From contig OX597827.1 of assembly GCA_951406725.2 (NCBI GenBank), positions 26,350,001 through 26,414,000 of the forward strand: a DNA stretch of 64,000 nucleotides, read 5' to 3'. The stretch comes from Octopus vulgaris. Its lineage: Eukaryota. Positions 9,225 to 44,945 of the stretch are shown piece by piece. Positions within the stretch are counted from its first letter, which is position 1. Each line of letters opens with the position of its first letter. The position numbers and the translations under genes were made by a program. The notes beneath the pieces were generated by a model that worked only from the letters and a program-made list of their open reading frames with translations, had not been told where the DNA came from and did not search any database.

Positions 9225-10700
9225 ATACGTTTCGACCAAAGATTGGTCCAGGCCATGCCAAACTTACAGTACCACCTCATAGGATTATCTAAATCTTTTT
9301 AAAGTCAAGTTTTGTGGTATAATGGTCTATTCGAGTAGGAAGTTCTTGTTGAGTGAGTTGTATCCAGATATAAGTGGCTTATTTGGTACTCCTTGAAGAA
9401 ATTTGTCCAGATTCCATTTAAAGGTGATGGGATCCTTTTCCTATTTGATATATTTTGGAACAATGTTAAATAGAACAGGTCCTGTTGAGGAAAATAAAAT
9501 TGTGTTGCAGTGTATTAATGTGTTGTAATCCTGAATCGCGTAAGGGAAGTATGGCCCATGGTCCTAGCCTTGGATGAATTTTGGAGCTAATATCGAGGTT
9601 GCTTGGGTAACGCTGGCGGTATAGTCTCCACATCCTGTAAATCCTGTATCGCTCGCGGCGGCGCTGCAGAGAGTAGAGTATCAAGGCATTAAGACGGTTC
9701 CAGTAATCGAGATCAGTCATGCCCTTAATACGTTTAGTGAATGCCCTCTGGGTTGATTCAATTTTCGAGATGTTTTGTTTTGTATGGGGAGACCACAGCA
9801 GGCAGCAGTATTCGAGGTGTGATCGTACAAATGAGAAGTAAAGTGGAATGATGACATCTTGTTCTCTGGACCGAGAGGTTCTTAGATCCAGGAGCTCATC
9901 CTACGTGCTACGTTGACTTTATTGTTGATGTGGACACTCCAACAGAGATTGTTATCAATAATTACTCCTAGGTCTCTGATATTATTAGATGCTGTGAGAG
10001 GTTTCCATAAAGGAAGAGAGTATGGTTGTTTTAACATAATCTTTTTCCCAAAATGCATCAGTTTAAGTTTTCCTTCGTTTCGTTGCATTTTGTTTTTGTC
10101 TGCCCATTGACTCACCAAATATAGATCAGACTGGAGCTGAGTTCGGTTTTCTTCTTCATTGGTGATTTGCTGGAGCTTAGTGTTATCCGCGAATATTCTC
10201 ACTTTGCTGTGTTTTACGACGCTGGGAATGTCGTTTATATAGATTATAAAGAGGAGCGGGTCCAAGGTAGACCTCTGGGGGACACCACTGGTGACTTATG
10301 CTGGGCTTGAGTGGACCCCATCGACCACAACATATATTCTGTTCTCCAGAAAATACTCAATCCAGTGTAGAAGTTTTCCACGGATTCCAACATTTGCCAA
10401 TTTTAAGATTAAGATATTATCATCAACTCTGTCGAACGTTTTACTGAAGTCAAGATATATGACATCAGAGTTCGAATCTGTTCCCAAGGCTCTAAGTATA
10501 TCCTCAATGTGGTGTAAGACCTTAGACAGTTCCTGCCACAGCGAAAGCCATGCTGGTTTGAATTGAGGAGTTTCTAGATGTCCAGGAATCCTGCTATCCT
10601 TGATCTTATCATTCCTTCAAACACTTTAATGATATGAGTGAGATTGGAGGATAGTTGACTGCGTGGAATCTGTTTCCCTGTTTGAAAACCGATAAACATG
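9225..10700 (-). mobile_element. CR1-group non-LTR retrotransposon, 5'-truncated, degenerate reverse transcriptase
   Basis: Frameshifted RT motifs DVIYLDFSKTFDRV (10296-10487) and PLLFIIYINDI...IFADNTKL (9882-10265); C-terminal YWNRLNALILYSLQRRRER (9466-9720); 3' stem-loop gaccaatctttggtc. Confidence 0.9.
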
Positions 10701-10782: not shown

Positions 10783-10850
10783 CTCATATACATATATATA
10801 CATATACATACGCGCACACACAGACACATATGCATATATATATATATAAT

Positions 10851-11060
10851 TTAAAGAAGAGATTATAAATTCTCAAACGCAGGATAGTGCTAATAATATA
10901 GCTTGAACAGGATAAACTACCCTTATTTTGCAGAAAAAGGTGGTGGAGGCCAGCTATGAGGCCGTCAACACTTTTTTCTGCAAAATAAGGGTAGCTTATC
11001 CTGTTCAGGCTATATTATTAGCACTATCCTGCGTTTGAGAATTTATAATCACTTCTTTAA
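10851..11060. repeat. near-perfect inverted repeat (about 101-bp arms, 8-nt loop)
   Basis: 10851-10951 pairs with 10960-11060 with about 7 mismatches or wobbles. Confidence 0.95.
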
Positions 11061-11139
11061 CTTTCTAAGACATCTCAACGCTTCTAAAGCAAACTTCGTT
11101 TGTTTTTTTACTTTCATCATAATTTGAATATAGATATAT

Positions 11140-12906: not shown

Positions 12907-13147
12907 ATAGAATGGTTGTATACTGTCAATCTAACAAGAACGTGACAGTAGGGGGTACACCACCGCTGTATAGCCCTAGGAAGCATCGAACGCCTCCTGA
13001 TGGCTTTGACACATTTTTCCCTGTGTCCTTATATACATATACGAAGGGGAGACAAACACCCCCGGCTGCCGAAACTGCCGCTATACAGCGGTGGTGTACC
13101 CCCTACTGTCACGTTCTTGTTAGATTGACAGTATACAACCATTCTAT
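12907..13147. repeat. perfect 68-bp inverted repeat with 105-bp spacer
   Basis: 12907-12974 is the exact reverse complement of 13080-13147. Confidence 0.95.
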
Positions 13148-17265: not shown

Positions 17266-18470
17266 GGTTAAGCGATCCATTTGCTGTCAACACCCGCTAA
17301 ATGGAGTGCTAGGCATGATTTGGTTGATGATGCGTAGACCTGCGCTGAGACTGCGACATATCCGGCGCTTCAAAGACGACGGTGAACAGGTGTGGTTGCC
17401 GTTTATGCAGCGCGCTTTCCCGCAGGTCGAACTGTAGTCGTAGATCAAACAGAGACCGAGGTTAGGCGAATGACACCGCAAGTGCCGCAAGTGCCGCCTT
17501 GCTCTCAAGCAACTCTGCCGTCCGGGACCAAACTTGCGCGACTTCAGTCCCACAAAGACGTTCTATAGAGGATTAGTGGAGGAGAGGTGCGACGACGTTC
17601 TCGGGCAGAATCTGGGTGTCGACAAGGAATACCTGACCCGCCTGTTTAGGACAACTTCAGGGTCGGGACATATGGACAATCACCAGAGGTCACTGGCCTA
17701 GCAGTGTTATCGAGAAGCATTACCTGTTCGGGATAAGCTCTACAGGAACGGTTCGAGACACACCGGACCGACATGCCCGAGATGCGGTCAGAGCGACGAA
17801 ACCATTCTCCACGCACTCGTGCAGTGTCCAACCATTGCGGTTCTGTGGGCTTATGCCGAACGGCTGCTGCCACGTGTGGCACGAGTTCGCTTGTCAACCG
17901 AGTCTGTCGTGAAAATTGCTCCGCCACTTCCTTTAACCGGGAAGGCAAGGCAGTCTTTATCGTAGTGGTGACCATGGTGAAAGAATGTGATGGTGGACAC
18001 GAGCGAAAGTTTTGGAGACAAACACTTACCTCTCTGGCCAATTGCTCGCCAACTTTTTCAAGTACCATTTGAAAAAGAAGGTGAGAATAGAGAGCTAAGT
18101 TTTGTCTTGTGAAAGTTTCAATAAAAGTTGGGTGAATGTAACAAAGATGGTGCGTGGAAGTGACATAAACACTTTGACCATGATCCTGTAAATGGAAAAG
18201 AGAGAGAGCACTTTGCTCTCATGTTTATTCCCTCTCTACCTGAGGTTACCGTGGTCTTTCCCGTAGGCTTTTCTTTCCACGGATAGACATAATCTTGCTT
18301 TTTACATTTAAAAATTTTTCTGTGATACATGATCCCTTTTGATTTCCTTTTCTCACAATCCCTGTTAAATCGGAATTTTATTTTTCTCCTATTTTTCTAT
18401 TTTCGAAAAGAAAAGCTCTACATTGTAGTTTGTCCCCGCTTTGTTCAGCCCTGTGTGGCTAATAAAGAAA
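17266..18470 (+). mobile_element. L1/Tx1-clade LINE, 5'-truncated ORF2 C-terminus and 3' UTR
   Basis: Plus strand reads EALPVRDKLYRNG...TCPRCGQSDETILHALVQCP..LW (CX2CX8HX4C zf-RVT, 17774-17827) with stops. Ends aataaagaaa. (CTAT)n on both sides. Confidence 0.85.
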
Positions 18471-23988: not shown

Positions 23989-24026
<38 letters not shown>

Positions 24027-24050
24027 GGATTATATATATATATGTGTATA

Positions 24051-24106
<56 letters not shown>

Positions 24107-24122
24107 TATACACATACATATA

Positions 24123-24168
<46 letters not shown>

Positions 24169-24325
24169 TCGCCATACTAATATGGCATTCTTATAAATAA
24201 GAATAAAGCTGTCCGCTTATTAGCTCCATGAGGCCATCGCCTTAAGTTAGCTATTTGATACACAAACTGTATCCATATAACCTTCGAACAAGGGAGGTCA
24301 GTCGCTCCACACTACTTGACCGGCA

Positions 24326-24367
24326 GCTACAGACGCGTTTCGGGGTATTGCCCCTTTTCAATGCAGC
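24326..24367 (-). ncRNA. minimal type-I hammerhead ribozyme, inverted copy
   Basis: Exact reverse complement of 24560-24601. Confidence 0.75.
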
Positions 24368-24559
24368 GTAGCCAGCCAGTAGGTGTCGCTTCTGACAATC
24401 TCTGTTCGATGGTTTTATTTACCTAGTTTCGGTGGAATACATCCACTTGTTTTCAATAATAGAAATATTAAAATTACTAAGTCTCTCTAAAAGAGAACAG
24501 CGGCAGCGTTCCCGGAAAATAATAGAGATTGTCAGAAGCGACACCTACTGGCTGGCTAC

Positions 24560-24601
24560 GCTGCATTGAAAAGGGGCAATACCCCGAAACGCGTCTGTAG
24601 C
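24560..24601 (+). ncRNA. minimal type-I hammerhead ribozyme (U3-A8 core variant)
   Basis: GCUGCA-UUGAAAA-GGGG(caaua)CCCC-GAAAC-GC-GUC-UGUAGC: 6-bp stem I, 4-bp stem II, palindromic ACGCGU stem III, GUC cleavage site after 24595. Confidence 0.75.
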
Positions 24602-24828
24602 TGCCGGTCAAGTAGTGTGGAGCGACTGACCTCCCTTGTTCGAAGGTTATATGGATACAGTTTGTGTATCAAATAGCTAACTTAAGGCGATGGCCTCATG
24701 GAGCTAATAAGCGGACAGCTTTATTCTTATTTATAAGAATGCCATATTAGTATGGCGATAACTATTATTTTCCGGGAACGCTGCCGCTGTTCTCTTTTAG
24801 AGAGACTTAGTAATTTTAATATTTCCAT

Positions 24829-24895
<67 letters not shown>

Positions 24896-24929: not shown

Positions 24930-25190
24930 TGTGTAGGCCCATGGCCAAGTGGTTAGAGCAGCAGACTCGTGGTCGAGGGATAGCGGGTTCGAATCTCAGA
25001 CCGGGCGATGTGTGTGTTTATGAGTGAAAACACCTAAGCTCCACGCGGCTCCGGCAGAAGGTAATCGCGAACTTCTTCTGAATCTTCCGCCACAGCTTTC
25101 TCTCACTCATTCCTCCTGCATCTTGCAGCTCATCTGCGACGAACCGGCGTCCTAATGAACCAGGCGTGGCTTGAGAAGGAACAAACAAGT
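24930..25190 (+). mobile_element. tRNA-derived SINE, family D
   Basis: A box tggccaagtgg, B box ggttcgaatct; homologous to 44670-44945; ctgcgacgaaccggcgtcc resembles a V-SINE-type domain. Confidence 0.8.
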
Positions 25191-32192: not shown

Positions 32193-32858
32193 GTGGAGTA
32201 TAAATTAAGACATGACAGAGTTGGCCAATATCTACACTGGCTAATAAGTCGGCATTACAATATCAAAACTGCCGACAAGTGGTATAATCACCACCCTGAG
32301 GCTGTAACTGACGGAGAAAATGTAACCATTCTGTGGGACTTTCCAGTACATACAGACCGAACCATCAAGGCCAATAAACCAGATATTGTTGTGAAAGACC
32401 AAAACAATAAAGTTTGCTTATTGATCGACATGAGCATCCCCTGTGATCATAATATCTCAGCGAAAGAGTTTGACAAGCTCAAAAAATATAAAGACCTACT
32501 CATTGAAATTGAGAAAATGTGGCATCTCAAGGCGGTTACAATACCAGTGATCGTAGGAGCACTAGGAATGATCAAGAAGGGAACCGAAAATTATATGAGA
32601 ATGATACCTGGCTTACCATCCCTGCAAGAAGTGCAAAAGATTGTCTTAACTGGTACATTACACGTATTGAGAAGAGCATTGTCGATGTGAGAACTGTTGC
32701 TGCTCATGTATTTTAATTTAACTTAAAAAAAAAAAATGAACGAACTATTGAGTTTGGTTTAATGGCCTACCAATGTATACTATGAGTTTCTTTGCCCTAG
32801 GAGTCGGGAAGACACTCGGCAAGAAATGGAAGCAAATTTGAAAGAAGAAAAAAAAAAG
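32193..32858 (+). mobile_element. Dong/R4-type 3' fragment, subfamily 1, with open RLE domain
   Basis: 165-aa open frame RHDRV...ILWDFPVHTDRTIKANKPDIVV...LIDMSIP...KLKKYKDL (PD..D restriction-like endonuclease); begins directly after (TAA)n. Confidence 0.93.
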
Positions 32859-32880
32859 TAATAATAATAATAATAATAAT

Positions 32881-33351
32881 TCCAGTACATACAGACCGAA
32901 CCATCAAAGCCAATAAACCAGATATTGTTGTGAAAGACAAAAAACAATAAAGTTTGCTTATTGATCGACATGAGCATCTCCTGTGATCATAATATCTCGG
33001 CGAAAGAGTTTGACAAGCTCAGAAAATATAAAGACCTACTCATTGAAATTGAGAAAATGTGGCTTCTCAAGGCGGTTACAATACCAAATTATATGAGAAT
33101 GATCCCTGGCTTACCATCCCTGCAAGAAGTGCAAAAGATTGTCTTAACTGGTACATCACACATATTGAGAAGAGCATTGTCGCTGTGGGAACTATTACTA
33201 CCCATGTAGTAATAGTTTTTTAACTTAAAAAAAAAAATGAACGAACTATTGAGTTTAGTTTAATGGCCTACCAATGTATACTATGAGTTTCTTTGCCCAA
33301 GGAGTCGGGAAGACACTCGGCAAGAAATGGAAGCAAATTTGAAAGAAAAAG
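32881..33351 (+). mobile_element. Dong/R4-type 3' fragment, subfamily 1
   Basis: Near-identical to the preceding copy, with a short internal deletion; (TAA)n on both sides. Confidence 0.92.
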
Positions 33352-33409
<58 letters not shown>

Positions 33410-33411
33410 TG

Positions 33412-33480
<69 letters not shown>

Positions 33481-33865
33481 GTGTTAATTGAAAAAGAAAG
33501 CAAACGATGCTGGATCATAGATATAGCATTCACAGCTGGCAACAAGGTATGCGATCAGAAAGAAAGAACAGTCGATAGATATGATGAGTTAGCTTGGGAG
33601 GTTAAGCAGTTGTGGTCCATGAAAAAGGTGGTAGTAGTACCAATAATTGTCGGAGCCCTGGGAACAGTGAGTAAAAATCTTGAAAATTGCATGAAAGAAA
33701 TAGGGGCTGTGTAATAAGGGTGGAGCACTTGCAGAAAACAACACTGCTTGGAACAACTCGAATACTCCAGAAGGTGCTCGAAAAATAAGTGGTGTTACCT
33801 TATTTCACTTGTAGTGAACAGCTGGCACCGTAGTACCTCTCCGGTGATAGAAGATGTGCAAAGAC
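33481..33865 (+). mobile_element. Dong/R4-type 3' fragment, subfamily 3
   Basis: CWIIDIA...ERTVDRYDELAWEVKQLWSMKKVVVVPIIVGALG; (TAA)n on both sides. Confidence 0.88.
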
Positions 33866-42132: not shown

Positions 42133-42164
42133 TTACTGCTGCTGCTGCTGCCGCCGCCGCTGAG

Positions 42165-42235
<71 letters not shown>

Positions 42236-42236
<1 letters not shown>

Positions 42237-42672
42237 TGCCGATACACACAGATAGAGAAATTAAGGCCAAAACACCAGATATAGTTGTCAGAGATCATGA
42301 AGGAAAAAAATGCTTTCTAATTGATGTATCAATACCAGCAGATGACAACGTTTCTCTAAAAGAAATGGAGAAACTTTCAAAATACAAAGACCTAGAAATA
42401 GAGGTAACTCGAATGTGGGATCTAAAAACAGAAACAATCCCTATCATAGTAGGCGCATTAGGTATAATAAAAAAAATATTCAGACAAATACATAACAAAA
42501 ACATCAGGACTTACAAATATATATAACATACAGAAAATTGCACTCATCCTACGCAAAACACTTTCAATACAGTAATCATCAGAGCACCACAACAAATCAC
42601 AACACATACCCAAGGCACACAGAGCTGCGCTTGGTAGTGAAATAAAAGCACGTGATAAAATAAAACTACTGA
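42236..42672 (+). mobile_element. Dong/R4-type 3' fragment in (TAA)n
   Basis: MPIHTDREIKAKTPDIVV...FLIDVSIP...EKLSKYKDLEIEVTRMW...IPIIVGALG. Confidence 0.9.
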
Positions 42673-44669: not shown

Positions 44670-44945
44670 CTGTGGAGGCCTAGTGATTAGAGAAGCGGAC
44701 TCGCGGTCGAGGAATCGCGGGTTCGTATCTCAGACCGGGCGATGTGTGTGATTATGAGCGAAACACCTAAGCTACGGCAGTAGGTGATGGCGAAGTACTG
44801 CTTACTATTTCGTCTCAACGTTCCCCCATTCAAGCTCACATGCGGTGGACCTACGTCCCATCTAGGTGGGGAACCTATACGCCGAGGAAACCGGGAAACC
44901 GGCCCTTATGAGCCAGGCATGGCTTTAGAAGTAATAAGCAACAAC
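44670..44945 (+). mobile_element. tRNA-derived SINE, family D
   Basis: Homologous to 24930-25190 (tctcagaccgggcgatgtgtgtg, aaacacctaagct); (AAC)n tail. Confidence 0.8.

Follow-up and report, generated by a model that had tools for sequence, protein, structure and literature searches.

Two opposite-strand copies of a 360-nt unit lie between (TA)n tracts in the window, the whole 64,000-nucleotide stretch of Octopus vulgaris DNA that was analysed. We regard it as quite probable that this inverted pair is a dead-end insertion from a family of non-LTR retrozymes, made with the reverse transcriptase (RT) and endonuclease of an autonomous Penelope-like element. The evidence comes from the anatomy of the locus, from a type I hammerhead motif carried by each copy and from the abundance of the unit in public sequencing runs.

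An inverted pair of the 360-nt unit

The two arms were delimited by an inverted-match search. The left arm (24162-24525, minus strand) is one full lap of the unit and reads, from 24525 to 24162, segment B (24456-24525, 70 nt), segment S (24404-24455) and segment A (24162-24403). Segment S is present in a single copy in the window and was covered in all four public runs that were aligned. The right arm (24524-24831, plus strand, 308 nt) consists of A (24524-24765) continuing into B (24762-24831). The two copies of A form an exact inverted match of 242 nt. The copies of B differ by one mismatch and include an exact inverted match of 64 nt (24462-24525 versus 24762-24825). When the right arm, taken from 24521 to 24831, was compared with the doubled 360-nt unit (24521 to 24162, minus strand), 309 of 311 positions were identical. 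One of the two mismatches, at 24523, lies just outside the joint; the other, at 24826, is the only one within the 308 nt of the arm. The segment orders on the two strands and the single mismatch in about 310 paired bp, both of which the initial annotation had read from the letters, were confirmed by these matches.

The arms meet 5′ to 5′, and the 3′ end of each runs into a (TA)n target tract (24010-24164 on the left and 24829-24895 on the right). At the inversion joint (24521-24525) four of five nucleotides match from 24521, and the AG microhomology that had been noticed within this (TA)n setting was found at 24524-24525. Pure tracts of (TA)8 or longer make up 2006 of the 64,000 bases of the window. 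Because both ends lie inside (TA)n tracts, no target-site duplication is readable. Non-microsatellite direct repeats of at least 10 nt, and hence LTRs, were absent from 24140-24850, and no further copy of the unit was found elsewhere in the 64-kb window. From one difference in 308 nt and a published rate, the age of the insertion would be about 0.5 million years or less, a crude figure that arm-to-arm conversion would bias.

With microhomology at both ends allowed for, the left arm is 359-364 nt long, which is one exact lap of the unit. The chance that a random stop would fall within this 6-nt range is about 1 in 60, a post hoc estimate for one locus. The right arm continues for 66-70 nt past the point where the left arm has its 3′ end. 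Since B follows A in the right arm and not in the left, the right arm is no simple mirror image, and A must have been continuous with B in its template.

Microsatellites and short interspersed repeats are frequent throughout the window. A copy of one interspersed repeat (24943-25109, found also at 44677-44832) begins about 50 nt past the right TA tract; it is probably a SINE, unrelated to the unit, and has a motif that we take to resemble a tRNA B-box. A near-perfect palindrome of 216 nt (10848-11063), also unrelated, adjoins a TA tract, has no hammerhead match and may represent either a miniature inverted-repeat element or a further retro-insertion in inverted form. An older self-inverted repeat with arms about 76% identical is located at 12907-13147.

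A type I hammerhead motif with a U3-A8 core

A descriptor of the type I hammerhead that accepts either C3-G8 or U3-A8 matched once in each arm, at 24560-24601 on the plus strand (predicted cut after C24595) and at 24326-24367 on the minus strand (predicted cut 3′ of 24332). These were the only matches in the 64 kb, and none was obtained in 30 shuffled windows or in 3000 shuffled units. In the right copy, the core (24566-24572) is followed by stem II (24573-76/24582-85), GAAA (24586-89) and a palindrome (24589-94), so that the UUGAAAA core with its U3-A8 pair and the palindromic stem III stand where they had originally been placed. Helix I has 6 bp and is extended beyond internal loop 1 by 7 bp or longer (24550-24609, plus strand). 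Helix II has 4 bp and a 5-nt loop, with no extra nucleotide before it, and helix III has 2 bp that together with a 2-nt loop make up the 6-nt palindrome. Loop 1 has its 5′ U at 24557, and the last base of loop 2 is the A at 24581; U and A at these positions are the bases named for loop-loop contact in the available text of PMC2632901.

As described in the accessible part of PMC4209133, the minimal build has a helix II of 7-8 bp, a helix I of 4-5 bp and an extra nucleotide before helix II. By these definitions the architecture seen here is, as judged from sequence, that of the canonical metazoan type I and not that of the Penelope minimal type. The minimal type I hammerhead of the initial annotation thus stands in its coordinates and its type, while the word "minimal" does not agree with the canonical helices.

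A search with hammerhead models had also been proposed as a check, and the models of Rfam 15 gave no match to the motif even at E ≤ 10. At this threshold Rfam returned 43 matches over 2001 bases and one over 111 bases, none of which reached the gathering score. Those to miRNA families were rejected, as they merely reflect the long hairpin and the microsatellites. The change from C3-G8 to U3-A8 is natural and reported as active in vitro (Perreault et al. 2011, PMC3088659, in the part available), and about 1,300 U3-A8 matches are given for Schistosoma in the accessible text of PMC4209133. As far as the listed variants go, the U3-A8 core is family-wide. The palindromic helix III was kept in one diverged contig (run X6, loose end 24348) with both of its central bases changed, as compared by eye. 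The exact 25-base ribozyme pattern had no match in viral contigs and none in metagenome contigs. Looser patterns gave at least 120 viral loci (51 of 64 parts) and at least 116 metagenome loci (21 of 64 parts). Since none of the 120 and none of the 116 passed the hammerhead descriptor or blastn against the unit, these loci are chance matches.

The circular unit is predicted to fold strongly in the sense orientation (z −7.8), and the antisense also folds well (z −7.1). In the folded circle the pair probabilities are 0.94-1.0 for helices I and II and 0 for helix III. When two copies were cofolded, the minimum-energy structure was a strand-swapped double hammerhead, at −55.7 kcal/mol versus 2 × −24.8. 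Helices I and II are predicted to form in the monomer, and helix III only through a strand swap of the palindrome between two copies; the dimer dependence suggested in the initial annotation is borne out by these predicted structures. A ribozyme of this kind would be expected to cut tandem transcripts and to stay quiet in a monomeric circle.

The distribution of sequence variants on this fold was analysed next to its antisense control. Among the 28 rows of the variant table, 18 above trace depth in run X3 were scored, and 14 reach at least 3% of depth. On the sense fold, 7 of these 14 sites are unpaired, 5 keep their pair and 2 break it, versus 6.5 breaks expected for the same transition/transversion mix (P = 0.009, an optimistic value given the depth weighting of the sites and their linkage within subfamilies). 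The antisense control gave 5 breaks versus 6.2 expected (P = 0.35). Common variants spare the sense-strand fold. None of the 14 sites falls inside the 42-nt ribozyme, which alone is not significant (P = 0.13). Five of the 14 changes listed for the diverged X6 contig break pairs when scored against the unchanged partner strand, a count that is uninformative since the partner strand is outside the aligned part.

The family in public sequencing runs

Public sequencing runs, 24 of them listed, were surveyed with 37 sampled words, and four were aligned to positions 24156-24530. The unit was present in 20 of the 24 (14 studies, 7 organism labels), with 0.73-0.92 of the 37 words; the run with the highest share may derive from the sample that was assembled. 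Contigs fitting the unit numbered 2201 and 1845 in the two DNA runs, and 996 and 736 of them, respectively, were at least 99% alike. The head-to-tail joint, at which the sequence passes from 24521 to 24162 and so goes back 360, was detected in all four runs aligned. Together with the A-B continuity of the right arm, this joint agrees with the earlier proposal that the template was a circle or a tandem array of a unit of about 360 nt.

The 360-nt unit has a GC content of 41.7%, and the longest ATG-started frame in a tripled unit is 38 aa. Because A leads into B, B into S and S back into A, there is no gap for an ORF. The share of contigs continuing into unlike sequence was 0 in both DNA runs. 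The loose ends listed for these runs read as unit variants, and a rare ORF-linked copy may be among the 204 further ones. No tRNA gene was found in the window, which leaves a tRNA-derived SINE reading of the unit without support.

The self-closing unit, with its absent ORF gap and with no DNA-run contigs that continue into unlike sequence, speaks against the arms being 5′-truncated pLTR remnants of an autonomous Penelope-like element, joined to the usual inverted upstream copy, with no independent retrozyme involved. This alternative would account for the inverted copy, the tail-like extension and the (TA)n target, all of which are Penelope traits. It is also compatible with what the available part of PMC4209133 describes for truncated Schistosoma elements, namely U3-A8 cores and hammerheads paired on opposite strands at a distance of 100-700 bp, and with the 31 recently active Penelope-like families of O. 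vulgaris (PMC13282606). Its ribozyme, however, would be expected to have the long helix II and the extra nucleotide after position 9 that are absent here, and the only RT matches, in 2 of the 10 ORFs tested, are weak ones to Pfam RVT_1 about 14 kb off. We consider this explanation improbable.

The summed contig depth in run X3 was about 0.42-1.49 million over bins 24169-24506, a value that is not a copy number; if single-copy depth is in the tens, it would suggest roughly ten thousand copies. In the same run, depth over 24404-24493 (B and S) was about 0.9-1.5 million, versus 0.4-0.9 million over A. The excess could come from copies with B twice or ending in S, or from AT-rich relatives.

Among the other copies of the unit, one stops at 24163 and one at 24290, each next to TA repeats, and one stops at 24457 next to a different sequence. 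Adjacency to (TA)n was therefore seen at both flanks of the present locus and at two other copy ends and was not seen at one other end, the number of ends being small. Two other opposite-strand joints were listed in the family. The window's own inversion joint was not among the joints listed in the four runs, where all DNA-run records listed have a depth of at least 47.7, so that a single-copy joint may be hidden. Its absence is what would be seen if the family were real and the inversion an assembly or library artefact, a fold-back chimera of two copies, and short-read assemblies are known to have difficulty with complex insertions of Penelope elements (PMC8557442, in the portion available). 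Such a chimera is hard to reconcile with arms that are permuted and not mirrored, with flanks that are not mirrored and with the base at which the arms differ, or with the existence of other opposite-strand joints in the family. The alleles of A are common to both arms, including at 24393 an allele that is in the depth minority in both DNA runs, as expected for one template. An artefact is in our view very unlikely.

In run X6, two contigs, at depths of 33.8 and 33.9, share 30 nt with each other at either end and together form a closed cycle of 362 nt. A circle, an array and dispersed copies that overlap would each account for such a cycle. Short contigs do not separate arrays or circles from dispersed 1.x-mers with overlaps, and tandem same-strand hammerheads were therefore not seen directly. 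The X6 cycle and the cover in runs marked "RNA?" were rejected as signs of expression or of circles, because the kind of run is a guess and trace DNA looks alike. There was no RNA run among the listed runs containing the unit, and "RNA?" contigs cannot show strand, level or circularity. Taken as a whole, the data support a family that is young, abundant and non-coding, bears a hammerhead, is continuous head to tail and is flanked by (TA)n.

Proposed insertion mechanism and relation to known elements

In the mechanism that we favour, tandem source loci would be transcribed, and the transcripts would be cut into 360-nt monomers and ligated to circles, as happens with the retrozymes of coral, mussel and axolotl. 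Each strand of a (TA)n tract would be nicked by a Penelope-type endonuclease, and from the two 3′ ends so exposed cDNA synthesis would start at sites of the unit that end in TAT, one at the end of A and the other at the end of B. There are 14 TAT-ending sites in the unit. The two cDNAs would then be joined through the AG microhomology, in a manner similar to L1 twin priming.

The predicted cut site is uninterrupted in both arms, with 72 and 236 nt on either side in one arm and 194 and 170 nt in the other. The template was therefore either a multimer that had not been cut or a circle closed again by ligation, and not a ribozyme-cut linear monomer. The one-lap stop of the left arm fits a circle, or a transcript whose 5′ end coincides with the beginning of B. 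Since each strand has a single hammerhead, no monomer or circle can be released from the locus itself, and a transcript across it is predicted to form a hairpin of about 245 bp. The retrozyme- or Penelope-like family of the initial annotation is thus retained as abundant, young, non-coding and (TA)n-flanked; the minimal type of ribozyme is not.

Twin priming is a mechanism of L1 and other LINEs, and a retrozyme-type unit might have been moved in this way by a microsatellite-targeting LINE (Dong-R4 or Hero), or might be mainly a DNA satellite. Both Dong-R4 and Hero are listed as recently active in O. vulgaris, where recent insertions number 1129 for Dong-R4 versus 336 for Penelope-like elements, and partner homology for the unit was not found. 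We nevertheless rate this possibility as quite improbable, given that the unit owns no poly(A) or simple-repeat tail and that its copies end at several unit positions (24162/3, 24290 and 24456/7). Animal retrozymes have been linked to the pLTRs of Penelope elements by published phylogenetic work (bioRxiv 10.64898/2026.07.22.740005, in its available part).

No partner element was recognised at the locus or among the published sequences compared. No ORF with RT and GIY-YIG was present at the locus. The published hammerhead and 3′ end of Hydra-1_Obim, compared by eye, are unlike those of the unit, and the 15-base ribozyme motif is absent from the accessible portion of the supplement of Craig et al. 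(PMC8557442). A weak AT-rich likeness of about 20 nt (about 24184-24203, minus strand; by eye, unscored) to the last 30 nt of the Naiad_Ovul consensus was noticed and may be due to chance. No host exons were recognised among the 10 ORFs tested with Pfam.

LINE remains were seen at several places in the window. A broken fragment with weak RVT_1 matches lies at 9466-10616 (minus strand). Others, mutually similar by eye and beside trinucleotide tracts, lie at 32193-32690, 33343-33714 and 42164-42526 (plus strand), and there is a local duplication among LINE fragments at 32341-33380. The best organism-named match of a LINE fragment was to Octopus sinensis, with 72% identity at rank 42 of the 120 matches listed; the other organism named was a cnidarian. 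A GC-rich, decayed coding-like stretch at 17330-18070, two frames of which had no Pfam match, contains by eye a CxxC...H...C motif. This motif is typical of the C-terminus of L1/Tx1 LINEs.

Metazoan non-LTR retrozymes are described in the available parts of PMC7229834 and bioRxiv 10.64898/2026.07.22.740005 as non-coding units of 150-450 bp with a GC content below 50%, and the mussel retrozyme unit has 350-390 nt (Cervera and de la Pena 2020, PMC7229834). As far as the accessible texts describe them, non-LTR retrozymes share with the octopus unit the short non-coding monomer with one type I hammerhead each, the head-to-tail continuity, the many dispersed monomers and a strongly self-paired circle with free ribozyme helices, the latter being a prediction for the octopus. 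By the same texts the octopus unit differs in its U3-A8 core and in a locus that is an inverted pair and not tandem. Cleavage and circles have been shown for published non-LTR retrozymes, whereas the octopus unit is known from its sequence and predicted fold. Only one of nine retrozyme dimers tested in the available part of the bioRxiv study was cleaved. On sequence-level features the unit agrees with a non-LTR retrozyme, and it would work like one.

With the Penelope pLTR hammerheads, in the portion of PMC4209133 available, the unit shares the U3-A8 covariation, the palindromic helix III for dimer folding and the opposite-strand pairs. Its likeness to Penelope-like elements as presented in the accessible part of PMC8557442 extends to the inverted 5′-truncated copy joined at the 5′ end, the tail-like extension and the (TA)n target. 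Unlike them it has no ORF, its ribozyme appears canonical and not minimal, and its extension is 66-70 nt as against tails of 30-40 bp. According to the same part of that article (Craig et al. 2021, PMC8557442), octopus carries the (TA)n-targeting Hydra and Naiad families. The natural core-covariant hammerheads in the available text of PMC3088659 also have the U3-A8 core, and palindromic stem III in repeat-type ribozymes; in contrast to those cases, the variant here belongs to an abundant animal retroelement family missed by the Rfam 15 models. Retrozymes have been published as non-autonomous Penelope derivatives (Li, Clavereau and Pollet 2026, bioRxiv 10.64898/2026.07.22.740005, in the part available). 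An autonomous/non-autonomous Penelope pair is described from Chlamydomonas in PMC9977147, the available portion of which gives no insertion anatomy.

No cephalopod retrozyme family was found in the literature searched on octopus or cephalopod hammerheads, retrozymes and Penelope-like elements, in which only Craig et al. 2021 was relevant. The words octopus, cephalopod, squid, inverted and microsatellite have no occurrence in the main text of PMC7229834. The family may already be contained, under another label, in the supplement of that article, in those of the 2026 preprint or in the O. vulgaris repeat library (PMC13282606). It is likely a new family of a known type of small animal retroelement, the retrozyme. 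Since the kind of element, the U3-A8 core and the inverted arrangement have each been published, the surprise is modest.

The mobilising enzyme of animal retrozymes and the circular-RNA template stand as proposals in the available parts of PMC7229834 and bioRxiv 10.64898/2026.07.22.740005. Both could be tested directly in the genome with a family as young and abundant as this one, whose insertion ends can be read, through one-lap arms, inversions and the lack of ends at the cut. The family would extend retrozymes to cephalopods, and it indicates that standard models can miss a whole hammerhead family. We put forward, tentatively and with more doubt than belief, a fuller picture: a young octopus retrozyme family of about ten thousand copies that Rfam models and other searches built on the standard core miss on account of its fixed U3-A8 core, and whose insertions record Penelope-type priming from both TA strands on circular RNA for one exact lap. 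If this is true, the locus would be a DNA footprint of the circle-template step proposed for the mobilisation of retrozymes and Penelope elements. Inverted pairs would then also be a source of long double-stranded RNA in octopus, an animal with heavy A-to-I editing.
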